A stretch of 63,360 nucleotides of DNA from Clostridia bacterium (GTDB taxonomy: Bacteria; Bacillota; Clostridia; UMGS1883): contig JBJDXJ010000006.1 of assembly GCA_051866635.1 (NCBI GenBank), positions 10,287 to 73,646 of the forward strand, given 5' to 3'. The notes beneath the pieces are model-generated. The model ran no database searches. It saw only the letters and a program-made list of their open reading frames with translations, and was not told the origin of the DNA. Position 1 is the first letter of the stretch, and each line of letters begins with the position of its first letter. The position numbers and the translations under genes were made by a program. Shown in pieces: positions 1 through 12,024 of this stretch.

Positions 1-253
1 GAAAGTTAAGCTTTCTCTTGAAAGTCTTAATATATACGGAGTGGTATCGAAGTGGGGACGTTTGCGAGTGCGTCCTGCGGACGATGAAGCGAGCAATAAG
101 GAGTTGCAGCGGTCAAAACTTTGCACGAAGTGCGAAAAGTTTTGGGCACCGCAATAGGACATAACGGACTGTCCGTTATGAGAAAAAATCTGAATAGTGA
201 AAGTTAAGCTTTCTCTTGAAAGTCTTAATATATACGGAGTGGTATCGAAGTGG
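1..253 (+). repeat. Direct repeat of at least 55 bp (1-55 and 199-253) covering the tRNA-Ser leader and its first 18 nt
   Basis: GAAAGTTAAGCTTTCTCTTGAAAGTCTTAATATATACGGAGTGGTATCGAAGTGG is identical at both sites, period 198 bp; the first copy is cut by the window edge. Confidence 0.95.
38..181 (+). pseudogene. Interrupted tRNA-Ser 5' fragment with a 103-nt structured insert in the D-loop
   Basis: 38-55 equals tRNA nt 1-18; insert 56-158; 160-169 CATAACGGAC resumes the tRNA sequence; 171-181 is its inverted copy. Confidence 0.75.
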
Positions 254-324
254 TCATAACGGACATGACTCGAAATCATGATGCCCCCTGAGGGACGTGG
301 GTTCGAATCCCACCCACTCCGCCA
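236..324 (+). tRNA. tRNA-Ser(CGA)
   Basis: Acceptor stem GGAGTGG/CCACTCC, anticodon arm CATGA-CTCGAAA-TCATG, long variable arm, GTTCGAATC T-loop, G discriminator plus CCA. Confidence 0.97.
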
Positions 325-376
325 AAAAGAGCTGTGAAAAACGATTTTTTGATCGTCTTGTTCACAGCTCTTTTTT
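324..376. terminator. Bidirectional intrinsic terminator
   Basis: 15-bp arms AAAAAGAGCTGTGAA / TTCACAGCTCTTTTT between the convergent tRNA and TM2 gene. Confidence 0.85.
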
Positions 377-413
377 CAATCAGCAAAAACCTTTAATATA
401 TTGTGTAAGCAAT

Positions 414-599
414 TTACGGATAATAGGGATTAGGCTTGAAAAGCAGAATAATCAAGTCAATTAAAACCCCTATACCAAAAAGTCCACCCGTACACAGATA
501 AACTACACCCAACAGAATTCTTCCTTCATAAAACTTGTGGATACCAATATATCCAAAAAACAGACATAGGAAAAACGAAATCCATTTAGATTTTGCCAT
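414..599 (-). CDS. TM2 domain protein
   Basis: KSKWISFFLCLFFGYIGIHKFYEG...YLCTGGLFGIG..IDLI pattern; GGGAGG RBS. Confidence 0.9.
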   Translation of the reverse strand: MAKSKWISFFLCLFFGYIGIHKFYEGRILLGVVYLCTGGLFGIGVLIDLIILLFKPNPYYP

Positions 600-667
600 G
601 ATTATTCCTCCCCGAAAAATTTAATTTATATGATTATCTTCATCATACCGCTTGAACACGTATATGC

Positions 668-717
668 AAAAAATACAGACCATAAAGATGCCATGACACC
701 TTTTTAGTCTGTATTTT
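668..717 (-). terminator. Probable terminator after the PspC gene
   Basis: AAAATACAGAC/GTCTGTATTTT arms followed by a T run on the minus strand. Confidence 0.55.
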
Positions 718-725
718 CTTCTCAC

Positions 726-923
726 TTATGAACCGTAATATGTACTTTGGGGAATAATGATTGCGGCTATAATATAAGCTATAATACCGCTACCACCCAA
801 TGCACAAAACGCAATCCAACCTAAGCGAACAATAGTCGGATCGATATTAAAAAATTCTCCGATTCCGCCACAGACACCTGCTAATATTCTGTTAGTGTTT
901 GATTTATAAAGCCTTTTATCCAT
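726..923 (-). CDS. pspC: PspC domain protein
   Basis: KRLYKSNTNRILAGVCGGIGEFFNIDPTIVRL; ATG at 923 follows AAGGAGG. Confidence 0.9.
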   Translation of the reverse strand: MDKRLYKSNTNRILAGVCGGIGEFFNIDPTIVRLGWIAFCALGGSGIIAYIIAAIIIPQSTYYGS

Positions 924-997
924 AGTCAAAATCCTCCTTGTGTTACTTCATTTTATAAATCCCAATTTATCATTTTTGGCAATTTTTAAATCTGTCT

Positions 998-1522
998 TTA
1001 AAATTTGAGCCTGTAATATAAACCCTCCGTTACTGTACCGTCACCGCATTTATACGGTGCCTTTCTTTCCAAACGAAATCCAAGCTTTTGCAATACGCGG
1101 CCTGATGCCTTGTTTTTTGCCGCATGAGCTGCAATACATTCTTTAATCTTCAACTCTTCCTCGGCATACATCATTACTCTGCTCATCGCCTCGGTCATAT
1201 AACCCATTCCCCAAAAGCGTTTTCCGAGATTATAGGATATATCCCAGTTATTTTCTTCTTCGTTAAAGAAAATAAGACATGTGCCGATTACGTCTTCCGT
1301 ATCCTTTAAAACAATAATCCATCGGTGCCACTTTTCATTTTCAAGATTATTCATTTCAAAATCAATGAATTCCCTTGCCTTATTTATGTCATTGCTTGCT
1401 TTCCAGAGCATATATCGTGATACATCTTCATCTTGCATCCAACACCTAAAAACATCATCTGCATCATCAGAATTAACGTGTCGCAGTATAAGTCTGTCTG
1501 TTTCCAACCACACAAATTCCAC
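998..1522 (-). CDS. GNAT acetyltransferase, RimJ/RimL type
   Basis: LETDRLILR; FWGMGYMTEA; NKASGRVLQKLGF. Confidence 0.9.
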   Translation of the reverse strand: MEFVWLETDRLILRHVNSDDADDVFRCWMQDEDVSRYMLWKASNDINKAREFIDFEMNNLENEKWHRWIIVLKDTEDVIGTCLIFFNEEENNWDISYNLGKRFWGMGYMTEAMSRVMMYAEEELKIKECIAAHAAKNKASGRVLQKLGFRLERKAPYKCGDGTVTEGLYYRLKF

Positions 1523-1621
1523 CTCTGTAAAACATATATTTATGCATTTATCCCATTGCGGCAGTACAACCGATAATTTTAATCATTTGTAACACCGCCT
1601 CTAGTTGTAATAAAGAGGAAT

Positions 1622-2026
1622 TTATGTCCATAAGGATGTTATAAACATCGGTGATGCATCCTTACTTTTTACAAATCCGCAATTTTCATAAAAATGCATT
1701 TCATTATCGTATGCAATAACCGCTATACGCATAAAGTCCTTATACTTTTGCTTAACCATATTTACAAGGGTCCTGCCAATTGTTTTTCCATGATAATCTG
1801 GATCCACAAGAAGATAATGAACATAAGCATTCATTATTCCGTCATCCATTGCACATACCATACCGACAAGCTTATTCCCATCCCAAGCAGAATAAACTGT
1901 ATCAAAATTTTTCATTGCAACTACAAGTTTATCCGGGAAATGACCAGATGACCACTCAACCGAAAGAAATAGCCGTTCAAGTTCATCACAGCCAAAATCA
2001 TGGATATCTTTATACTCAATATTCAT
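1622..2026 (-). CDS. GNAT acetyltransferase
   Basis: LLVDPDYHGKTIGRTL; FYENCGF. Confidence 0.9.
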   Translation of the reverse strand: MNIEYKDIHDFGCDELERLFLSVEWSSGHFPDKLVVAMKNFDTVYSAWDGNKLVGMVCAMDDGIMNAYVHYLLVDPDYHGKTIGRTLVNMVKQKYKDFMRIAVIAYDNEMHFYENCGFVKSKDASPMFITSLWT

Positions 2027-2075
2027 TATATTTTACCTCTGTAAATGCCAATTTATCCGGTTCTGAAGCTTGAAC

Positions 2076-2522
2076 TTATCTAACCAATACATATTCCTGA
2101 ACCGGATTGCCAAATTCTTCTGTCAGCCTTCCTTCAACAAAACCCATCTGCTTATAGAATGCTCTTGCAGCTGTTCCTTCCGGTACTCCTTCGCAATATG
2201 TTGTGACAACAACATCCTTTTTAGAATCCAGAAATGTCAGCATATATGACAACATTTTTGCTGCAATATATTTTCTACGATATTCGTTATCTACAGCTAA
2301 AAAACAGATCATATTATTGTCTCTTGAAAACAACAACACGCCGACGACCTTATCATTTATTTTTGCACATATTGCGGAGTCTCTTCTTATAAAATTTATA
2401 ACCGTATCCCTATGTTCATCCAAAGCTTCTTTCGTTTCAAGTCCGGGAAAGCTTTCTTTTACTTTGTTTACAAGTTCCATCCAACTATCAATATCACTTT
2501 CATGTCCAAGTATAATTTTCAT
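2076..2522 (-). CDS. GNAT acetyltransferase
   Basis: LAVDNEYRRKYIA; ARAFYKQMGF; start moved to the ATG at 2522, downstream of a GGAG RBS. Confidence 0.85.
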   Translation of the reverse strand: MKIILGHESDIDSWMELVNKVKESFPGLETKEALDEHRDTVINFIRRDSAICAKINDKVVGVLLFSRDNNMICFLAVDNEYRRKYIAAKMLSYMLTFLDSKKDVVVTTYCEGVPEGTAARAFYKQMGFVEGRLTEEFGNPVQEYVLVR

Positions 2523-2661
2523 TCCGTTCATCTCCAAATTCCACTTTGTCATTTTGGACAATTTTTTATATCTGCCTTACTTAAACCGTTTTTCTTGCCC
2601 TCTGTCGTAAAGCTAAGATTACATATTAATCACTCAGTTTAATAAACCTACATTTAACAAA

Positions 2662-3303
2662 CTATAAAACCCATGTAATTAAATCCCAAGCCGAATGAAG
2701 AATTGCCCCTGTCCATATTGACCTATTTTTCCTGAATACCCACCCAAATATTAATCCCAGTGCGTATACAGAGATACTTGTTATAATAATAGTTGTTAAT
2801 TCATATCCTGCAAAAATCCATCCCGGATAGTGTATTAACACAAAAAGTGCAGAGGAAATCAAATTTGCCTTGCGTTCACTTACAAAGGTCGATATCGAGT
2901 TTAAAAACCATCCTCTGAACACGCTTTCCTCAAAAATACCAACCGTCATTGCCGTAACAACAAGATCGTACAATTTCATTTTTGTTCCGTATCCGCTGCT
3001 GTAAATGAAAAATCCCACTATATTGTAAACCAATGTAAATACCAAAAGCGGCAGCAATACTTTGAGTTTAGGTTTTGTTGTAATCATTTCTTTCAGTGAT
3101 ATGTTCAAATAATCGCTGTATCGTTTAATTAAAATAAATGCAAACAAAGGCCACCACACAACATGAATTAAAAAGCTTATAACCCATGCCAAAAACTCAT
3201 TCATCCCCGATAAATCCAAACATACAACTCGTAGTGTCCATCCCGCCAAAAATATAAGATAAGATATTACTACTGTTCGTATTCTTAAATGTTTTGTTTC
3301 CAT
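2662..3303 (-). CDS. CPBP (CAAX protease/Abi) intramembrane metalloprotease
   Basis: EESVFRG, FVLIH and HSAWD motifs; multiple TM segments. Confidence 0.9.
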   Translation of the reverse strand: METKHLRIRTVVISYLIFLAGWTLRVVCLDLSGMNEFLAWVISFLIHVVWWPLFAFILIKRYSDYLNISLKEMITTKPKLKVLLPLLVFTLVYNIVGFFIYSSGYGTKMKLYDLVVTAMTVGIFEESVFRGWFLNSISTFVSERKANLISSALFVLIHYPGWIFAGYELTTIIITSISVYALGLIFGWVFRKNRSIWTGAILHSAWDLITWVL

Positions 3304-3331
3304 AAGAATCCTCCGTAAATTCCGATTTGTT

Positions 3332-4045
3332 TTACTGTTTTTTATAATTGATATTTGCCGACCTTGCTTGTTTGCATAAATCTTTTGTCTGTAACTTATA
3401 TTGTTTGCCGTCTTTTATGAAATGAGTTCCGCACTGTCTAAATTCAAAGTCAACATTTTTTCTGATACATTGATTGCGGATATCTAAAACCCAATCATAG
3501 TCAAGCACTCGAGCATCTATGTCTGACTCTCCGCCGACAACTACTAATTCTATATCATCAAGATATTGTTCAATGTTTATTTTTTCAAGCAATGGTTGTG
3601 CGGTGATACATTTGTGGTTAATTGGCAGCTTTTCAAAAACAGACAGCTTTTTATCTGCATTTTTCTGATTTTCGATAGTGCAGCACACAACCACATTTTT
3701 ATATCCGTCACCCCAATCATCCGGAATACATTCTGAAAATCTTTCTATTCGCTTTGTGAGAAAAAGAAATGTGCAATCAGACCGTTCTTTTATCATAGAC
3801 CAGCATTCTTCACGCCATTCGTCAGCTTCTTCAATCAAAAAATCTGTGGAGAAACAAGTATAAACAATTCCTGCTTTCATTTTATAGTTGCCGTTTTTAA
3901 GTCGTTCGATAGGCTTTTCAAAATCCTTTGTTTTTACAATGTTATCCGTAACAATACCACGCTTTGCATCGCCTTTATGGATATAGCAATACAGACACCC
4001 ATCGCTGCATTTTTTACACCCTCTCCACGGATTCCACATAGACAT
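3332..4045 (-). CDS. DUF5131 (Gp37Gp68-like) Fe-S protein
   Basis: WNPWRGCKKCSDGCLYCY, FLTKR, VVGGES; real start at 4045 after AGGAGGTG. Confidence 0.85.
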   Translation of the reverse strand: MSMWNPWRGCKKCSDGCLYCYIHKGDAKRGIVTDNIVKTKDFEKPIERLKNGNYKMKAGIVYTCFSTDFLIEEADEWREECWSMIKERSDCTFLFLTKRIERFSECIPDDWGDGYKNVVVCCTIENQKNADKKLSVFEKLPINHKCITAQPLLEKINIEQYLDDIELVVVGGESDIDARVLDYDWVLDIRNQCIRKNVDFEFRQCGTHFIKDGKQYKLQTKDLCKQARSANINYKKQ

Positions 4046-4131
4046 AATCAAACACCTCCTCAAATTCCGAGTTGTGCTTATTATTTCAGTCCGCCTAACT
4101 GTTTTCTGTCTTTGAATAAACCGGAATTTGT

Positions 4132-4374
4132 TTACTTGTTTTTGAATTTGCTGATAATCCATTTAATTAGCAAAATTCCACCTGTGATGGTAGCAACCTT
4201 TATCAAAGAAACTACAATCGTTGTTGCGATAAGAGGAAGAACTTGTTCCTTTGGCATTGTGGTATAAATGGTCATAATATCTTTTTCAATCCACATATAC
4301 ACGATATATGCAATCGCTATAATTCCAACAATAATTCTCCATGGTTCTTTTTTTCTTTTTTCATTGTTATCCAT
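4132..4374 (-). CDS. Small two-TM membrane protein
   Basis: Two hydrophobic stretches; AAGGAG RBS. Confidence 0.75.
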   Translation of the reverse strand: MDNNEKRKKEPWRIIVGIIAIAYIVYMWIEKDIMTIYTTMPKEQVLPLIATTIVVSLIKVATITGGILLIKWIISKFKNK

Positions 4375-4405
4375 ACGAATGTCTCCTTTGCCAAATTCCG
4401 ATTTG

Positions 4406-4549
4406 TCATTCTAAATTTTTTAACAAGATAATCTCTAAAGGCTCACGAGGCAGCAATAAAGAGCCGCAATCTACATATCCGATTTTTCTGTAAAAGAATT
4501 GTGCTTGCTCGTTGGATTGGGTGGAAGTCAAAACTATTTTATACTTGCT
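4406..4549 (-). pseudogene. C-terminal remnant of a GNAT acetyltransferase (not in the ORF track)
   Basis: Hand translation SKYKIVLTSTQSNEQAQFFYRKIGYVDCGSLLLPREPLEIILLKNLE*; no plausible start, 5' part replaced by the neighbouring gene. Confidence 0.8.
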
Positions 4550-4551
4550 TT

Positions 4552-4881
4552 TTATTCTGATAATTTCCTCTTACAAAAGCTCTTTTCTTTGCAATTGGGA
4601 CATTTTAAATATCTTCTTGTAATCGTATGCGCTCCCCAAACATATGCCCCAAGTGTAGGTTTGAATCTTTGTCCGCATTTTTTACATTCATAATATCCTG
4701 CACTGTAATCAATAAGTACCGCCGCTATAAGTGCAATGATAAATGTTATACTGCTCAATACAACAAGCAAAATTGACCAGTCAATCGGCAAAAATTCAAA
4801 CACTGAAGCACTTATCATAATCAAAATAAGAGATATAAGAAGTATACATACCGATAAGAGAATTCTCGTTAAATTTTTCAT
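4552..4881 (-). CDS. Membrane protein with C-terminal zinc ribbon
   Basis: Two TM segments, then YECKKCG...LKCPNC; start 4881 chosen from RBS (track start 4902). Confidence 0.75.
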   Translation of the reverse strand: MKNLTRILLSVCILLISLILIMISASVFEFLPIDWSILLVVLSSITFIIALIAAVLIDYSAGYYECKKCGQRFKPTLGAYVWGAHTITRRYLKCPNCKEKSFCKRKLSE

Positions 4882-4882
4882 T

Positions 4883-5713
4883 TTACTCAAGCTCCTTTTC
4901 ATTGTCTTTTGCCTTAAATGTGATGCTTAGTTCTCCTATGCCTCCGTCGATTTCGATAAAGTTTTTGCCTGCACCGTAAACCGAGTCATCACTCATTTTC
5001 TTACCTTCAAGCCATGCCTCTCCGATGCCTTTGTCAAGTTCTATCTTATAATCATCTTCTTCACCGATAAGTACAAGATTTGTTTCTCCGACTCCGTAAT
5101 CAATACTGCTTTTGCCGGAAAGCTCGCTTATTAAATTAAGCTCACCTACACCCATATCAATGTCTGCATTGCTAAGGTATCCGCCTTTAATTGTTACACT
5201 GCCGGCACCGCCGCCAATTTCAGCATTATATAGAGCATCAAGCCTTTGTGCAGTAAGTTCACCTGCTCCAAGATCAATATTAAGCATATTTGATAAAAGC
5301 TCATCTATTGTAACACTTCCTGCTCCGGCTCTTATATCCACATAGTCAAAAATTTTGTCTTTAGGTACTGTGACAATCACTTTCATACCTCTCGGATGTG
5401 AGGCAAATAGCGTTCTTGTTTCACTTATTTTAAGAATATCATCTTTTTCTTCACATTTTAAATATTTGTGATTTGTTTCCACATCAAATTTATAACCTGT
5501 TTTTATTTCAAGTTCTGCCGCACTTAAATTTATGCTGATACTTGTGAAATCAGTTCCAATAGTATGATTTATCGCTATTTCATCATCTGTATTTGGGCTA
5601 AAGAGATTTGCAACTGTAAACAATGCACCACATATACCTGATATAATACTGATACTCAAAAATATCGCAAATGCCAGTGCAAGATATTTGATTATTTTCT
5701 GAAAGGTTGTCAT
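4883..5713 (-). CDS. DUF4097 beta-strand repeat protein (LiaG/adhesin-like)
   Basis: N-terminal TM; repeated IxxGxGxL/V units. Confidence 0.8.
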   Translation of the reverse strand: MTTFQKIIKYLALAFAIFLSISIISGICGALFTVANLFSPNTDDEIAINHTIGTDFTSISINLSAAELEIKTGYKFDVETNHKYLKCEEKDDILKISETRTLFASHPRGMKVIVTVPKDKIFDYVDIRAGAGSVTIDELLSNMLNIDLGAGELTAQRLDALYNAEIGGGAGSVTIKGGYLSNADIDMGVGELNLISELSGKSSIDYGVGETNLVLIGEEDDYKIELDKGIGEAWLEGKKMSDDSVYGAGKNFIEIDGGIGELSITFKAKDNEKELE

Positions 5714-6381
5714 TTTATATCAACTCCTCCGAAAACGCAAGTGCCGTTCAAATAAATTGTTGGTTGATTGTCTTTTGAAGTTCTGTGATTCTTATTATCA
5801 ATACCACCGAAGATAGAATTGGAATTAACCTTTACATTTACATTGTCGGGAAGAAAAATATCTGCACCGCCAAAAATACAACAAGCATTTATAACGGTAT
5901 CACCTTCAAATATGGCATTTCTTAAGTCAAGTTTTATCCCTCCGAAAATTGCAGTAAGCTCTGTTCCGCAAAACACTTCATTGTCATAAATAATGTCATG
6001 TCCCGAAAAAGCCGCAAAAGCCGTTTTCATATTACTGTGAGTTACATCTATACATTTAACTTTGTTTTTTTCCATGCCGCCAAAAATCATTTTAATTCCG
6101 ATTACGGCGATTATTACAGGCATTGTAAGCTTCCACACAATATCAAAATCAAGAATATTCTGACAGGCGAGAAGTAAGAACGTTCCTATTAAAAGGCCGA
6201 TAATATTTGCGGTTTTGTCATGACCGTTAAACAGTCCGATGAAGCTCGGAACGATAATAAACAGTGTCCACCAGCCGTCAAAGAATATCTCTATGCTTGT
6301 TATTTCAAATGCGTTTAAAATCAGTACAGCACTTACCGCAAGCAGAGCCAACCCCCATAAAATACTGTTAATTCTTTTCAT
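5710..6381 (-). CDS. LiaF-like cell-envelope stress membrane protein
   Basis: Four N-terminal TMs; AIFGGIKLDLRNA, IFGGADI, VFGGVDIK repeats; ATG at 6381. Confidence 0.8.
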   Translation of the reverse strand: MKRINSILWGLALLAVSAVLILNAFEITSIEIFFDGWWTLFIIVPSFIGLFNGHDKTANIIGLLIGTFLLLACQNILDFDIVWKLTMPVIIAVIGIKMIFGGMEKNKVKCIDVTHSNMKTAFAAFSGHDIIYDNEVFCGTELTAIFGGIKLDLRNAIFEGDTVINACCIFGGADIFLPDNVNVKVNSNSIFGGIDNKNHRTSKDNQPTIYLNGTCVFGGVDIK

Positions 6382-6505
6382 ATCTTTTCTCCTCCTCAAA
6401 TTCTTTTAAAGCGGCTTTTACAGCCAATTTTATAACAAAGTAAGCCACAACGGAAATTGCTCCGATAATAGCTCCATACATAATAATTATCGCAAGTGAA
6501 CCCAT
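6368..6505 (-). CDS. 45-aa single-TM protein (not in the ORF track)
   Basis: MGSLAIIIMYGAIIGAISVVAYFVIKLAVKAALKEFEEEKRYEKN*; GGGGGG RBS; overlaps the next start codon. Confidence 0.7.
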   Translation of the reverse strand: MGSLAIIIMYGAIIGAISVVAYFVIKLAVKAALKEFEEEKRYEKN

Positions 6506-6523
6506 AATAATGTCCCCCCAACT

Positions 6524-7210
6524 TTATTTAACATTTCCATTTACAATTTGAGCATAAACCTCTTCCGGTATCATTGGCGTATTCAGCTTTTTCATTGTAT
6601 CAGCTTCTATTTTTCCATCCCCTGCATATTCACGCCCTGCCTGACGCATCACATCAAGAAACGGCTTGGTAACCTCAGCTGCCTCGGGCACATTGAACAT
6701 AGGACTTTCCGGTACTGTTATGATTGTGTTGTCATGAGGAAACATCAGCTCAAACTGCTTGATCATACCCTCAAAATTATTTTTGCTGTTTGGAAATCCG
6801 CATCCGCAAATCATCACGTAACGCAGATGAGAAAAATCAGCCTGTGCAACATGTTCGTAACGCTCTCCTACCTTTTGCATTGCCATACTGCCAAGAGGAA
6901 GTGTACGGTCCATAAGTGCTTTTAGCGGTGCAGGCATACCATAGCCGTATAGAGGAAAACTGAAAATCAGTACATCACTTTGCAAAATTTCATTTAAAAT
7001 GTCGTGCATATCATCACTATGAATACACTTTCCGCCGTTTTTCATACACTCAAAGCAACCTGTGCAATATTCTATCTTTTTATCAATCACATCAATTATA
7101 CGCACCTCATTTTTGCAGGTATCGTCCATTCCATTTAAAAAAGATCTTGTCATATGCATGGTATCGCTTTTATTTCGTTTTGGGCTACCGTTTAACACCA
7201 ATATTTTCAT
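6524..7210 (-). CDS. Flavodoxin family / iron-sulfur flavoprotein-like FMN reductase
   Basis: ILVLNGSPKR; CTGCFEC..NGGKC; FPLYGYGMPAPLKALMDR. Confidence 0.85.
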   Translation of the reverse strand: MKILVLNGSPKRNKSDTMHMTRSFLNGMDDTCKNEVRIIDVIDKKIEYCTGCFECMKNGGKCIHSDDMHDILNEILQSDVLIFSFPLYGYGMPAPLKALMDRTLPLGSMAMQKVGERYEHVAQADFSHLRYVMICGCGFPNSKNNFEGMIKQFELMFPHDNTIITVPESPMFNVPEAAEVTKPFLDVMRQAGREYAGDGKIEADTMKKLNTPMIPEEVYAQIVNGNVK

Positions 7211-7319
7211 AGTAACGTTTCACTCCTTCTTTGTTTCTGTACCTACATTTTACGACATTTTTCGTAAAACATATAGGCAAATTTTTCAGATAAATGTGTC
7301 AGAATTATAGGTTGTAATT

Positions 7320-8069
7320 TTACTTCTCTCCGCCTAAAAATTCTCGTCTGAATTGGGATGGGGTAATTCCTTCTGACTTTTTGAACACCTTTGTAAATAC
7401 TCTGTATTCGCTATATCCTGTATGCTCTGCTATTTCGGTTACAGAAAGTGAAGTGGAAAGGAGTAGCTTTTTTGCCTTTTCTATGCGGATATTCGTAAGA
7501 TAAGCTAAAAATCCTACTCCGATTTCGTTTTTGAAAAGCTGACTGATATACTGTGGATTTAAGTGAAATTCATCCGATAAAACAGAAAGGCTTATTTCCT
7601 CGGACAAATGCTCCTGCATATATCTCGTTATGGATGAAATAACTCTTTCGTCACTTTTATCCAATTCTGAATTCTCTCTTGTCTTGCTCTCGTACATAGA
7701 TATTTTTAAGTTATCAATCGAACTGCCAAATTCTTCATAGTTTACAGGTTTCAAAATATAATCTGTAATCTGAAGCTTAAGTGCTTTTTTACAATATGAA
7801 AAGTCATCATATCCCGATACAATTATATAAGCAATTTTAGGATGTTTTGTGCGGCTTAATTCAATAACCTTTAATCCGTTCATAATCGGAATATTTATGT
7901 CCATGATAACAATATCAGGAATGAGTAAATCAATTTGTCCCAACGCTTCCATACCGTCTGATGCTTCGCCCACTACCTCACAACCGTGTGCCTCCCAGTC
8001 AAACAGGCGTTTAAAGCCCTCTCTTATCATTATTTCGTCATCAACGAGCAGTACCTTGAGTTTTCTCAT
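7320..8069 (-). CDS. YesN-type response regulator (receiver + AraC HTH)
   Basis: LLVDDE, MDINIP, YILKP; C-terminal FTKVFKKSEGITPSQFR. Confidence 0.92.
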   Translation of the reverse strand: MRKLKVLLVDDEIMIREGFKRLFDWEAHGCEVVGEASDGMEALGQIDLLIPDIVIMDINIPIMNGLKVIELSRTKHPKIAYIIVSGYDDFSYCKKALKLQITDYILKPVNYEEFGSSIDNLKISMYESKTRENSELDKSDERVISSITRYMQEHLSEEISLSVLSDEFHLNPQYISQLFKNEIGVGFLAYLTNIRIEKAKKLLLSTSLSVTEIAEHTGYSEYRVFTKVFKKSEGITPSQFRREFLGGEK

Positions 8070-9373
8070 TTATATTCCTCCTGCAAAAGTGGCAACAGTA
8101 TATGTGCGGTTACGCCGCCACCTCTATTCTCAGTGTAGCTAAGTCCAAATTCCTTGCCGCACAAAAGTTTTATACGCTTTTGAACATTTAAAATGCCTAT
8201 ACTTTCTGTCTTTGCTTTTTCCTTGTCGTAATGCAGAAGCATCTCATCAATTTTGCTTTTTACACCTTGTTCAAAACCGCTTCCTGTGTCTGATACTTGA
8301 ATTTCTATACAATTTTGATTTGACTTTTTAGCCGATACTGTAATTTCTCCTTTGTAGCCTTTATTTTTAAGCCCGTGAAGGAGGCTGTTTTCGATAATTG
8401 GCTGAAGAATAAAGTTCGGCACAAGTGCATCACCTAAATCAGGATCAACATCACAGTTGTATTTCAGGTTTGGATAACGGCAACACATTAGCTCCATATA
8501 TGCATCTGAAAGCTCTATTTCGTCTTCAAGTACTGTCATCTGCTTGTCTGTTTTTATGCTGAGACGGAAAAAATCCGATAACCGCATCAATAAATCGGCT
8601 GTTTTCTTATCACCGCCAAGCTGTGCCTGAATACGGATTGTATCAAGGGTATTGTACAGAAAGTGGGGATTTACCTGACTTTTTAAATACAGCATTGACA
8701 TTCTCTGCTCAGTAAGCTCCGCACGAAGTATATCGGGATTTTCCAGAGTTAAATAGAATGCAAGGGTCATCAGGGTGATACCCATTCCTGAAATCAGCCA
8801 AGTGGGAATTATTGCTTGTAAAACCAACACGATACCTTCAATTATGAGTGCCACACCGATTGCCGCTTTCTTTTTCCTATCAATTTGTCTGCGATTTTTA
8901 AGCAGCAACCACAGGCACACAAATAAATAAAACGCAACGCTTATGTAGCAGGCAAATACATAAACACCATACGAATAATTTCCCTTTTCCGTGATCGTAT
9001 ACTGCATCGGCAAAATCATTATAAGAAATTCTGCTATTATCAAATATATTTTTGCCGCAAGGTGAAAGCGTACAGGCTTTTTTGTTTCCTCCTCAACCAA
9101 AATGGAAATGTATCTGTAAAACAAATATACAACAATCACCATTGTTCCGATAAACAGCCTGTGTAGAATTTCATTTAAAACAGGCGGTACTGTTTCCAAG
9201 TGATTTACCGTATAAACGGTTGCGGCATCAAACGCAAAATGCAGCGGCGTTATAATCAGCAGTGCCGAAAAGGTTTTGTGCAGAGGCGTATTTCTTCTGC
9301 CCGCACTAAAATATATAAATGCGATGAAAACCAAAACCAAAATCAAGGCTATTTCCATTCTCATCATATGCAA
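8066..9373 (-). CDS. YesM/LytS-type sensor histidine kinase with multi-TM input
   Basis: LKSQVNPHFLYNTL, LQPIIENSLLHG, DTGSGF, IGILNV. Confidence 0.9.
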   Translation of the reverse strand: MHMMRMEIALILVLVFIAFIYFSAGRRNTPLHKTFSALLIITPLHFAFDAATVYTVNHLETVPPVLNEILHRLFIGTMVIVVYLFYRYISILVEEETKKPVRFHLAAKIYLIIAEFLIMILPMQYTITEKGNYSYGVYVFACYISVAFYLFVCLWLLLKNRRQIDRKKKAAIGVALIIEGIVLVLQAIIPTWLISGMGITLMTLAFYLTLENPDILRAELTEQRMSMLYLKSQVNPHFLYNTLDTIRIQAQLGGDKKTADLLMRLSDFFRLSIKTDKQMTVLEDEIELSDAYMELMCCRYPNLKYNCDVDPDLGDALVPNFILQPIIENSLLHGLKNKGYKGEITVSAKKSNQNCIEIQVSDTGSGFEQGVKSKIDEMLLHYDKEKAKTESIGILNVQKRIKLLCGKEFGLSYTENRGGGVTAHILLPLLQEEYK

Positions 9374-9406
9374 TCACTTCCCTTAACAATGCTATATCAG
9401 ATTTTT

Positions 9407-9793
9407 TTATTCTCCTTCATTTTTTCGTTTTCTACTTTTTTGTTGTTTTCTCAGCTCGGTTGCATTTAAGAAAACAGCAATGCAGTTCAGCACCAGTGCC
9501 AAGGGCAGACACCAGTTGGTATGCCCGTCAGGAGACAAACCGAAAATTCCTTGCACCAAAACGAAAATAGAACCTAATTCAAAAACTATTGTCAGAATAT
9601 TCAAAAGAGTTACCTTTTTACAGAACGCAAGGATAAACATCAGTACCATTAAATCCGCATACAATCCGTAAACAATTCCCGTAATCCGACTGCTCCAGGG
9701 GAAGGACATCTCCGGATGCCACATCCCATAAATGACAAAGCCGATGGCGGCAATGAGCATCACACAGGCGGGTATTAAAAATCTTTTTTTCAT
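9407..9793 (-). CDS. Four-TM hypothetical membrane protein
   Basis: Hydrophobic pattern; AGGAGG RBS. Confidence 0.7.
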   Translation of the reverse strand: MKKRFLIPACVMLIAAIGFVIYGMWHPEMSFPWSSRITGIVYGLYADLMVLMFILAFCKKVTLLNILTIVFELGSIFVLVQGIFGLSPDGHTNWCLPLALVLNCIAVFLNATELRKQQKSRKRKNEGE

Positions 9794-9835
9794 CCAAACT
9801 TCCTCCTTATTGAAATAAACATGACCAAAATAGCT

Positions 9836-10129
9836 TTATTTATCTTGGTCATTGTCCTCACCGTGATTTTCTTTCTTTATACAAGTTCCGATAGCAAGAC
9901 CAATCAGCAAGCCCAGTGAGATGCCGATACCGGTATCATTTCCCAGCGAGGTGCCAATGGCTGTGCCAAGGCACATGCCAATACACATACCCTCTGTGCC
10001 GTAATTACCACTTTGTTCTTTCTCCTTTTTCTTTCTCGCATTTATTGCAAAATAAAATGCTATTAGCAGACCAATTGCTATATAAGGCAATGCTGCCATA
10101 AGAAAATCAAATACATTTCTCATAATCAA
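9836..10129 (-). CDS. Glycine-zipper-like membrane protein
   Basis: GMCIGMCLGTAIG...GISLGLLIGLAIG. Confidence 0.7.
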   Translation of the reverse strand: MIMRNVFDFLMAALPYIAIGLLIAFYFAINARKKKEKEQSGNYGTEGMCIGMCLGTAIGTSLGNDTGIGISLGLLIGLAIGTCIKKENHGEDNDQDK

Positions 10130-10239
10130 AATCCATCCTTCCCTTTTTTCAACAAGTTACAGTAATATTATACAAGAAGACTTTTGACGAATATATATGG
10201 ATTTTTAAGCAATATGTGTCCATTTTATAGATATATGTT

Positions 10240-11316
10240 TTATTTATTCTTCTTTTCGCCACTTATACCGCACACGCACCAGCGTAGAATTGGAATACGG
10301 CTGATGATTTCATACAACAGAAAAGCACCTACAAATGCCGCCACACCCACAATAGCATACATGGCTACAGGTGGTAGTTCTGCATAGATATGTAAGTACC
10401 ACGCACACACAGCAAGCGGCAGATAGTGGAACAGATACAATCCCCATGATTTTCTATTCATAAATCGGGATAATGAATTATCAAAATTGCCCCATCGTTT
10501 CATCACTGAAAAAACTGCCAATACCGCTGTCCACGCATACAGATTACATAGGAAAGTATCCAACACTTCGTGTTCTGCATATGGTGCACCCCAAAATCTA
10601 AGGACAAATATAACTCCTGCCAAAAGTGCCACCGGCAAAAAAATCCACCACCATTTTTCCAACTTTTCCATGACTGAATCGTGGGAAAAGATGAAATATC
10701 CAATCAAAAATCCTACGCCGTATATACCAAATCGATACACCACGATGATAGGTGTATTTAGGATTTGAGCGGCTCCCCAAACAACTAGTACCAGAGCAAT
10801 CAAAATGGGTACATTTACCGATTCACAAATCCGATACAGTCTGTCTTTTTCAATTCTGCAAATCAATAGCAAAACCGATGAAAACAGCCATAGCATTTGT
10901 ATGTACCACAAGGGACCTGTGCCGCTTAATGCCATTACGATAAAACGTATAGGCAAAGGTGCCTGTGACAAGCTTTCAAATCCACCGCCTATTAACGTGT
11001 TGTAATACCCAAGAATCCACCAGAACACAAAAAGACCAATAGTTGAAGGCACCAACAGTTTTGTTGTCCTGCTTTTCACAAACTCTTTTGAGGAACTGTG
11101 TTCAAGGGAAAATCTTGCACTCATACCCGAAACAACAAACAAAAGCAGCATAAACCATGGATAAACAATATACTGGTACACATCCTGATACTGCACAGCT
11201 GAAAAAGGTCCAATTACCCCAAAGGTTACAATGCTGTTAAACATATAAATCACGTGGTAAATCACTACCAAAACCACGGTGATCCACCTGATATTGTCAA
11301 CGTAAACTTTTCTCAT
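10240..11316 (-). CDS. Acyltransferase family 3 membrane protein
   Basis: YVDNIR..VVIYH, FMLLLFVVSG, LWYI, SWGLYLFH. Confidence 0.88.
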   Translation of the reverse strand: MRKVYVDNIRWITVVLVVIYHVIYMFNSIVTFGVIGPFSAVQYQDVYQYIVYPWFMLLLFVVSGMSARFSLEHSSSKEFVKSRTTKLLVPSTIGLFVFWWILGYYNTLIGGGFESLSQAPLPIRFIVMALSGTGPLWYIQMLWLFSSVLLLICRIEKDRLYRICESVNVPILIALVLVVWGAAQILNTPIIVVYRFGIYGVGFLIGYFIFSHDSVMEKLEKWWWIFLPVALLAGVIFVLRFWGAPYAEHEVLDTFLCNLYAWTAVLAVFSVMKRWGNFDNSLSRFMNRKSWGLYLFHYLPLAVCAWYLHIYAELPPVAMYAIVGVAAFVGAFLLYEIISRIPILRWCVCGISGEKKNK

Positions 11317-11317
11317 G

Positions 11318-11614
11318 CTATTTCCTCCACCGATATTTTTCTAAATCCACCTTATAGTCCGTAACCTCAATCCCGTCTGATTTGAGTTTTTCTTTTTGCT
11401 TTTCTATACCGCCAAAAGCGTATTTTTCCGAAAGATAACCTTTGCTGTTTACAACCTTATAGCAAGGGTATTTTTCACCGTCCGGATTTTTGTGCAAAAT
11501 ATTTCCCACCGCCCGTGCATAATGCTTGTTTCCTATCATTTCGGCAATCTGAGAATAGGTTATAACCTTACCTTTTGGAATGTTTTGTAAAATTCTATAT
11601 ACTTCTTCCTTCAT
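11318..11614 (-). CDS. MGMT-family DNA alkyl-repair protein (short form)
   Basis: IPKGKVITYSQIA, ARAVG, PCYKVVNSKG. Confidence 0.88.
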   Translation of the reverse strand: MKEEVYRILQNIPKGKVITYSQIAEMIGNKHYARAVGNILHKNPDGEKYPCYKVVNSKGYLSEKYAFGGIEKQKEKLKSDGIEVTDYKVDLEKYRWRK

Positions 11615-12024
11615 ATCAAAACTCCGTTACAATGGTCTATTTCATGTTGAATAATCTGTGCAGTCCATCCCTCAAAGGTTTTGACACGCACTTTAAAATC
11701 CTTCGTCTGATACCTTACTTTAATTTTTTTGTACCTTTTTGTCTTTCTTGGTCCGCCCAAAAGTGACAAACAGCTTTCTTCCGTTTCGTAAACATGGGAT
11801 GCAGTAATAATTTCAGGGTTAAACATTGTTATATACGTTCCATTATCATTAAAACAGATGATACATTTTTTAACACCTATCATATTTGCCGCCATCCCCA
11901 CACAGGACTCCTTGTGAAATATCAATGTTTCCATAAGATCTTCCGCTGTCTGCAAATCGGCAGCTGTTGCCGCTATTGACTTCTGTCCTAAAAATATTGG
12001 GTCGTGCATTAATTCTTTTATCAT
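11611..12024 (-). CDS. def: Peptide deformylase (short, divergent paralog)
   Basis: GMAANMIG, ESCLS, QHEIDH. Confidence 0.85.
   Translation of the reverse strand: MIKELMHDPIFLGQKSIAATAADLQTAEDLMETLIFHKESCVGMAANMIGVKKCIICFNDNGTYITMFNPEIITASHVYETEESCLSLLGGPRKTKRYKKIKVRYQTKDFKVRVKTFEGWTAQIIQHEIDHCNGVLI

Follow-up and report, generated by a model that had tools for sequence, protein, structure and literature searches.

What brings unrelated small genes together in one orientation, each bordered by the same short motif? The question is raised by a 63,360-nucleotide stretch of DNA, which we call the window in its full length, from a Clostridia bacterium of the GTDB lineage UMGS1883 (contig JBJDXJ010000006.1, positions 10,287 to 73,646). 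A sequence-only reading of the window had proposed an integron-like gene-capture array between positions 955 and 4406, bounded by a recurrent 16-bp motif. Judged by sequence comparison with other genomes, the motif is real and marks the swap points of single genes between genomes.

Read from the gene outward, the consensus is NNAAATTCCRRTTTRT, 16 bp of the form AAA-N6-TTT, with a weak extension CGRGCA beyond. The site has a direction. In the L orientation it lies just 5' of a ribosome-binding site (RBS), mostly 10-16 nt upstream of the start codon; in the R orientation it is inverted and lies on or after a stop codon, which occupies motif positions 2-4 in 27 of 65 R sites. The alignments show that each cassette is composed of L site, RBS, gene, stop codon and inverted R site. 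All 11 window copies reported by the sequence-only reading, six on the plus strand and five on the opposite strand, are present where it had placed them. It had set every plus-strand copy just upstream of a minus-strand RBS: this is so for five of the six, the copy at 955 lying about 25 nt from the pspC start. Its association of the opposite copies with stop codons was borne out, with a real TAA stop at motif positions 2-4 of the sites at 1610-1625, 986-1001 and 2064-2079, and a stop abutting the site at 4116-4131. The cargo named there (GNATs, a CPBP protease, DUF5131 and small membrane proteins) agrees with the Pfam families, namely three GNATs, Rce1-like/CPBP, DUF5131, PspC and TM2. The parts of the array are as follows.

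414..599, minus strand: TM2-domain gene (Pfam), with no site scored adjacent
726..929, minus strand: PspC-domain gene (Pfam)
955..970, plus strand: L site before pspC, of the AAATTCC type on the plus strand, serving the minus-strand gene
986..1001, minus strand: degenerate R site containing the GNAT1 stop codon, below 10 bits
998..1522, minus strand: GNAT1 (Pfam), with no L site scored before the gene
1610..1625, minus strand: R site containing the GNAT2 stop codon; metagenome contigs diverge inside it, at 1617 and 1619
1622..2026, minus strand: GNAT2 (Pfam), a complete L-gene-R cassette
2041..2056, plus strand: L site before GNAT2, one end of an L-to-L deletion in relatives
2064..2079, minus strand: degenerate R site containing the GNAT3 stop codon, below 10 bits
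2076..2561, minus strand: GNAT3 (Pfam); from the RBS, the true start is probably just after the 2534 site
2534..2549, plus strand: L site before GNAT3; the spacer 2545-2622 is placed elsewhere in a relative's array
2642..2657, minus strand: degenerate R site after the CPBP gene, below 10 bits
2662..3303, minus strand: predicted CPBP/Rce1-like membrane protease gene (Pfam)
3315..3330, plus strand: L site of the CPBP gene, immediately following the DUF5131 stop without an intervening R site; second end of the L-to-L deletion
3332..4045, minus strand: DUF5131 gene; the start at 4045 is suggested by the RBS after the 4060 site, and the listed open reading frame (ORF) extends to 4162
4060..4075, plus strand: L site before DUF5131; a different gene follows in relatives
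4116..4131, minus strand: R site after the 80-aa gene, forming with 4060-4075 a 72-bp R-to-L spacer module
4132..4374, minus strand: 80-aa membrane-type gene without a Pfam family, a complete L-gene-R cassette, missing here in relatives
4391..4406, plus strand: L site before the 80-aa gene
4406..4558, minus strand: open stretch of 50 codons that lacks a start and ends in the 4391 site; by eye a gene remnant, with no Pfam match

Scored with a matrix built from the copies themselves, eight of the 11 reach at least 18 bits, and those at 986, 2064 and 2642 stay below 10. A refined matrix finds 14 sites of at least 18 bits genome-wide, against 1-2 in each of three shuffles, an enrichment that is partly circular because the matrix contains the window sites; six of the 14 fall between window positions 900 and 4450. 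With up to two mismatches allowed, the consensus gives 13 matches across the whole window for 11.0 expected, but nine of the 13 (8 sites) are concentrated in 955-4406. The consensus at this stringency is therefore not enriched over the window as a whole. The sequence-only reading had noticed no copy beyond about 4.4 kb; two further inverted pairs, each around one gene, lie elsewhere in the genome (C49:94526/95062 and C19:1111/1641). Strict site patterns are rare (5 of 87 genomes, and 2 of 401 in another scan), and most homologues of the window genes in 60 relatives have no sites. Several consensus matches, inside glnS and other genes, were set aside as chance; 106 of 251 genomes had a match, a figure that is no gauge of spread. 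Clostridia and probable Bacteroidota loci alike retain the motif. Gene content, and the named records that have the motif too, also make a member of Clostridia the probable host of the window. At three loci (L235, L238 and L239) L and R sites surround genes on contigs that appear Bacteroidota-like by gene content.

L and R differ in their cores. The L core is mostly TTCCGA; the R core is mostly TTCCAG, TTCCAA or TTCCGG. Among 35 scored bracketed cassettes (37 were found; loci L218, L230 and L193 were removed, being false or duplicate), CCGA stands at positions 8-11 of 27 L sites and of a single R site, and positions 10-11 are identical at both ends in only two cassettes. Of the L sites, 13 of 37 have a promoter-like pattern pointing inward; of the R sites, 2 of 45 do, and one of those two is a mislabelled L. 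The site sets behind the core and promoter counts have slots in common and are not independent.

Relatives do not keep a fixed gene order, and homology breakpoints coincide with the motif and fall inside the site, as the sequence-only reading would have it. Relatives at about 90% identity join 2039 to 3313, an L-to-L deletion found in three of three gut metagenome runs from one study; the 80-aa cassette is missing from its place in the same number of runs (the letters between are not known). One metagenome contig carries the spacer 2545-2622 at another place, and others diverge from the window at 1617, 1619 and 4060. Outside the array, the same behaviour is seen in a phage slot between the tail chaperone and tape-measure genes, where promoter and terminator are fixed. 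Its 32 loci (4 too short) hold 17 cargo sets: nine with L and R, three with L only and five with no site. All nine L-and-R cargos lie in sense, one of them as a tandem of L-gene-R-spacer-L-gene-R, and two cargos of this slot turn up again in other slots. Four unrelated contexts, in records from Campylobacter, Enterococcus and Kurthia, share a GNAT gene of a Campylobacter plasmid slot, and the junctions fall within both of its sites. The R site, too, is a crossover point: one and the same R outer flank is found with different genes, and a single gene with differing R outer flanks. Since both sites cross over, the gene is replaced in place. No inverted cargo gene was seen among the cassettes.

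The position of the crossover can be read from mismatches between sites. Where two sites share the gene side (68 pairs in 16 groups), mismatches amount to 0-7% at positions 1-6, 9-26% at positions 7-9 and 41-44% at positions 15-16. Where they share the outer side (139 pairs in 39 groups), mismatches reach 63% and 47% at positions 1 and 2 and are few at positions 3-9; the groups in these profiles are not independent of one another. Together, the two profiles place the crossover between site positions 3 and 9. The alignments thereby show bases 1-2 travelling with the gene, bases 15-16 and beyond with the surroundings, and the switch at positions 3-9. At the level of sequence, the whole is shown to be an alternation of gene and intergenic modules, joined within one directional site.

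Resistance genes occupy such slots. The gene catA13 lies between L and R on Campylobacter jejuni and Aeromonas salmonicida plasmids, whose likeness to each other starts and stops at the sites. In a Campylobacter plasmid slot made of a promoter and an L site, the first cargo varies: catA13, an AAA-type ORF, or a GNAT gene followed by a second L and the same AAA-type ORF. One plasmid allele thus differs from another by a single GNAT gene and the second L. The passenger slot of ISSag10/ISCco2 holds lnu(C), the GNAT of the Campylobacter slot or the AAA-type ORF, behind an identical outer half-site. The transporter insertion sequence MTnSag1/tISSag10 is moved as a whole by an IS1595 transposase acting on its own 25-bp ends, and the part of its description consulted mentions neither inner sites nor passenger exchange (PMC5704250); here, the lnu(C) passenger lies in an L/R slot within that unit. 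The cat marker of Campylobacter genetics itself contains an L site, in primer 5705 upstream of cat, printed without comment in the relevant part of PMC3994027. As separate observations, a cat gene lies between L and R on a mobilisable element, adjoining a relaxase gene (L140, G209:C19:471-1135), and site-like matches occur near apmA, after cfr(C) and after an AAA-type gene (L266:1940 and 2880, L269:3512, L270:8566) on Enterococcus, Clostridioides and Pediococcus plasmids.

The intergenic module is also a dispersed repeat. R and L often face each other across 3-230 bp. Such short R-to-L modules number 57, and many are perfect hairpins about 40 bp long. Of 95 modules, 77 show AATT at positions 4-7 on each side, AATT being also the consensus. 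One genome (G474) contains 160 R-to-L copies, mostly with the core TTCTGA, at the ends of ordinary genes, against none for the reversed control, and this repeat family is common to 3 of 25 relatives. Another (G477) has 18 copies, and in this genome a 240-bp module starts from the relA stop codon, between two housekeeping genes. The source genome has only a few sites. Modules can carry other material: in GC-rich, phage-like structural operons an R-to-L module stands between most genes (L344, with 12 sites in 8 kb, L350, L359, L362, L371, L310 and L325), and within these modules lie further repeats of REP-like and heptamer type. G474 repeatedly carries a non-coding module, about 140 bp long and with heptamer-like repeats, between inner half-sites whose outer halves differ (L411:424-598, L412:7574-7740 and other places). 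DDE insertion sequences lie inside or between such repeats at L490 (G483:C97) and L487 (G479:C429).

How does this system compare with those already described? On Acinetobacter plasmids, pdif (Xer) modules are genes bracketed by inverted sites; two kinds of module alternate, resistance genes move with them and the enzyme acts in trans. The present system likewise has genes between inverted sites, two alternating module types and resistance genes that move as modules. It differs in its site, which is 16 bp with short arms and no dif likeness seen, in modules trimmed to RBS, gene and stop, and in the differing L and R cores. A loose scan of the source genome found no clear dif site of the 11-6-11 form with a XerD arm, and by eye the consensus has no XerD-type arm. 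The pdif modules are named in bioRxiv 10.1101/2022.12.17.520857. Integrons, and clusters of attC sites lacking integron-integrases (CALINs), resemble it in promoterless, gene-only cassettes of unrelated small genes, in tandem arrangement behind a promoter, in a stop codon inside the downstream site and in hairpin-capable R-to-L spacers. Unlike integrons, both sites cross over, and the slots are scattered over chromosomes, phages, plasmids and an insertion sequence (IS). The best match to IntI (TIGR02249) in the source genome (96.6% complete) scores 53 bits against a cut-off of 265, with none above it. The proposal of an integron-like array thus stands for the shuffling of genes as cassettes and fails for the integrase and for the way the sites cross over.

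Repetitive extragenic palindromes (REPs), with REPINs, bacterial interspersed mosaic elements (BIMEs) and miniature inverted-repeat transposable elements (MITEs), share the intergenic hairpins, the copy numbers of up to 160, the nesting with other repeats and the frequent provision of a stop codon; papers on such families include PMC3733652, PMC3116915 and PMC2817692. Unlike REPs, the motif is AT-rich, without a GTAG or CGTC foot, and the same ends delimit gene cassettes that move between phyla. No Y1 transposase (PF01797) was matched in the draft genome G474, and none of six Y1 loci in four other genomes has a site within the examined flanks. Shufflon sfx sites, the substrates of Rci, are asymmetric and have a weak arm inside the gene ends. 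The site described here is asymmetric as well and likewise has its weak arm inside gene ends, but genes are exchanged, one direction is kept, no inversion is seen and no recombinase stands beside the array. For GTAG REPs, the main text of PMC3733652 contains no occurrence of Clostridia or Firmicutes. Altogether, the system works like pdif modules and integron cassettes and is a member of neither on the tests made: it has no IntI above the cut-off, two crossovers per cassette and no dif-like form that could be seen.

The reading we favour, an even call in our judgement, is that a trans-acting site-specific recombinase, probably of the tyrosine type, exchanges gene and intergenic modules at these 16-base crossover points. 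The form AAA-N6-TTT fits the 6-bp spacer of a tyrosine recombinase. The enzyme would join sites of the same kind, L to L and R to R. Through an L-by-L event, a cassette circle would enter directly downstream of a promoter, yielding tandem arrays as in the window; by a later R-by-R event the old cargo would be lost, and the gene in a fixed slot replaced. The core difference would hinder L-by-R inversion and so keep genes in sense. L-to-L insertions and deletions, tandems, replacement in place and the lack of inverted genes would all be explained by this pairing and the core difference. Insertion at cryptic AAATT-like sites, often TAA stops, may seed new slots and, in some lineages, hundreds of hairpin copies.

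A number of findings weigh against this reading, above all those on the enzyme. No recombinase lies beside the window array, as the sequence-only reading had expected. None of the nine tyrosine and five serine recombinases of the source genome adjoins a strong site, 20 tyrosine-recombinase loci in four site-bearing genomes have no strong site at the gene ends, and about 250 site loci have no recombinase beside the sites. In 80 further viral loci, the nearest are a prophage-type tyrosine integrase 365 bp off and serine integrases about 2 kb off. In none of these scans could a recombinase or transposase be tied to the sites. No circle and no ongoing exchange were seen. For a classical tyrosine recombinase the arms are short. 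The R core of one gene varies between slots, and several cargos are still found in slots whose outer half has decayed, so strict core identity is not required. The five of 17 phage-slot cargo sets without a scored site fit poorly, and so do the 160 copies in G474 and the relA module, which look more like transposition: at the relA locus, none of the 17 relatives that could be scored, of 18 tried, has a pair of this kind at the gene ends.

Several candidate partners were discarded. The motif bears a likeness to the ends of ISEcp1-type elements; IS1380/ISEcp1-type ends were rejected, as the geometry does not fit and PF13701 has no match in the source genome or five site-rich genomes. One genome (G184) has a broken IS1380-like gene after a site, but that site has an IS30-type flank. 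The element at L490 is not autonomous for the repeat: a distinct DDE element, it has inverted ends of its own, shows a 10-11 bp duplication and has inserted into a module. TnpV of the source genome has no site pair near. Genes for a four-helix-bundle protein (PF05635) are expanded in G474, G479, G482, G483 and G477, each with 5 to 17 matches, where eleven relatives have 0 to 5; as a partner they were dropped, since only 3 of 30 loci have a site. Also encoded in the source genome are four stand-alone tyrosine recombinases that resemble one another, about 275-315 aa long and each with a large gene after it (C31:33598, C35:5486, C38:75586 and C49:35440).

The dispersed copies lend weight to another reading, plausible but on balance doubtful, in which the sites are the ends of a miniature transposon. 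The mobile unit would then be the R-to-L module, a REP or MITE with its tips at site position 8, inserting in AAATTT-like targets and duplicating AATT. Such targets would often be stops and positions before RBSs, and the bracketed gene would be swapped by inside-out transposition, an excised circle being the next target. The short hairpin modules, the amplification in G474 with its family in 3 of 25 relatives, and the new module at the relA stop codon speak for it, such dispersal fitting better here than under a recombinase; AATT on both sides of most modules would be the target duplication, the differing L and R cores would be left and right ends, and REP ends that provide stop codons are known for GTAG REPs (PMC3733652). 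Yet ORF reading finds no transposase inside any of 13 longer R-to-L pairs, the later candidate L490 proved a separate element, and there is no match to an IS1380-family protein in the source genome or five site-rich genomes, nor to a Y1 transposase in G474; a missing autonomous partner is a weak negative, as draft genomes often lose such elements. No precisely joined allele was found among five tested, and no empty allele in viral contigs or, for the C19 cassette, in 86 relatives. L-to-L insertions and deletions and the uniform sense direction are not simply predicted by transposition.

The exchange might instead need no dedicated enzyme, the repeat having spread otherwise and host recombination or replication slippage between short repeats swapping the genes. 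Hairpins favour slippage, and an R-to-L module has indeed collapsed to a single site between short direct repeats (L266 compared with L255), a form resembling the junctions at window 3315 and 4391. We hold this improbable, for many junctions share just 6-14 identical bases, and even so phages, plasmids and an IS repeatedly show single genes cleanly exchanged; the keeping of the motif from Clostridia to probable Bacteroidota loci is a further point against it. Least probable by far, in our view, is that the sites are ends or binding sites of IS30-like elements in which a similar TAAATTCCAC motif occurs, or that they serve a regulator as operators. One intact member of the IS30 family (NF033563) and several relatives do carry multiple motif copies at both ends, and L sites often lie just downstream of a promoter, but the element tip is about 14 bp to the gene side of the motif whereas cassette breakpoints fall inside it, and the source genome has no such transposase. 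An operator would leave the inverted copies at stops and the breakpoints within the motif unexplained. A long, cysteine-rich IS30-family subgroup (L131, at G244:C85, and L151-L167) bears multiple TAAATTCCAC-like copies at each end, and the outermost lies about 14 bp in from the tip.

Beyond the array, window positions 4552-12024 hold more co-oriented small accessory genes (DUF4097, LiaF-like, flavodoxin-like and others) with no strong sites, and 12190-36490 a large polysaccharide cluster with glycosyltransferases and Pel-like genes, by ORF translations. An Rfam scan of window 1-6000 gave only tRNA above the gathering score. The tRNA-Ser gene (236-324) has its upstream flank and first bases in two copies, at 1-55 and 199-253; the copy at 1-55 may be an assembly artefact, because it is preceded by a scaffold gap of Ns in contig C6.

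To the earlier account of the array, the comparisons add the differing L and R cores, the L sites that often follow a promoter, the R-to-L unit as a dispersed repeat and the resistance genes carried into other phyla. We found no published description of this site system in the literature searched, supplements and subscription papers being outside its scope; new here are the array, including its natural deletions, the interval mapped for the crossover, the difference between L and R cores, the slots that hold resistance genes and amplification in the manner of a REP.

Integrons are held to be nearly absent from Gram-positive bacteria. Tentatively, and with rather less than even confidence, we propose a widespread gene-capture system of gut anaerobes, in which one short site both spreads as a REP-like hairpin, landing on stop codons and ahead of RBSs, and brackets minimal cassettes, swapped by a trans-acting enzyme among promoter slots on chromosomes, phages, plasmids and IS elements. 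It would be a Gram-positive counterpart of integrons with its own route to new cassettes, and a step that loads catA13 and lnu(C) onto carriers into pathogens. Gut anaerobes are a main source of resistance genes, and the site would account for single genes loaded behind ready promoters on mobile elements. As it brackets catA13 on Campylobacter and Aeromonas plasmids and lnu(C) of ISSag10, it offers a simple signature for finding mobilised genes. Because the same site newly appears at the ends of housekeeping genes, it also bears on how gene cassettes arise.

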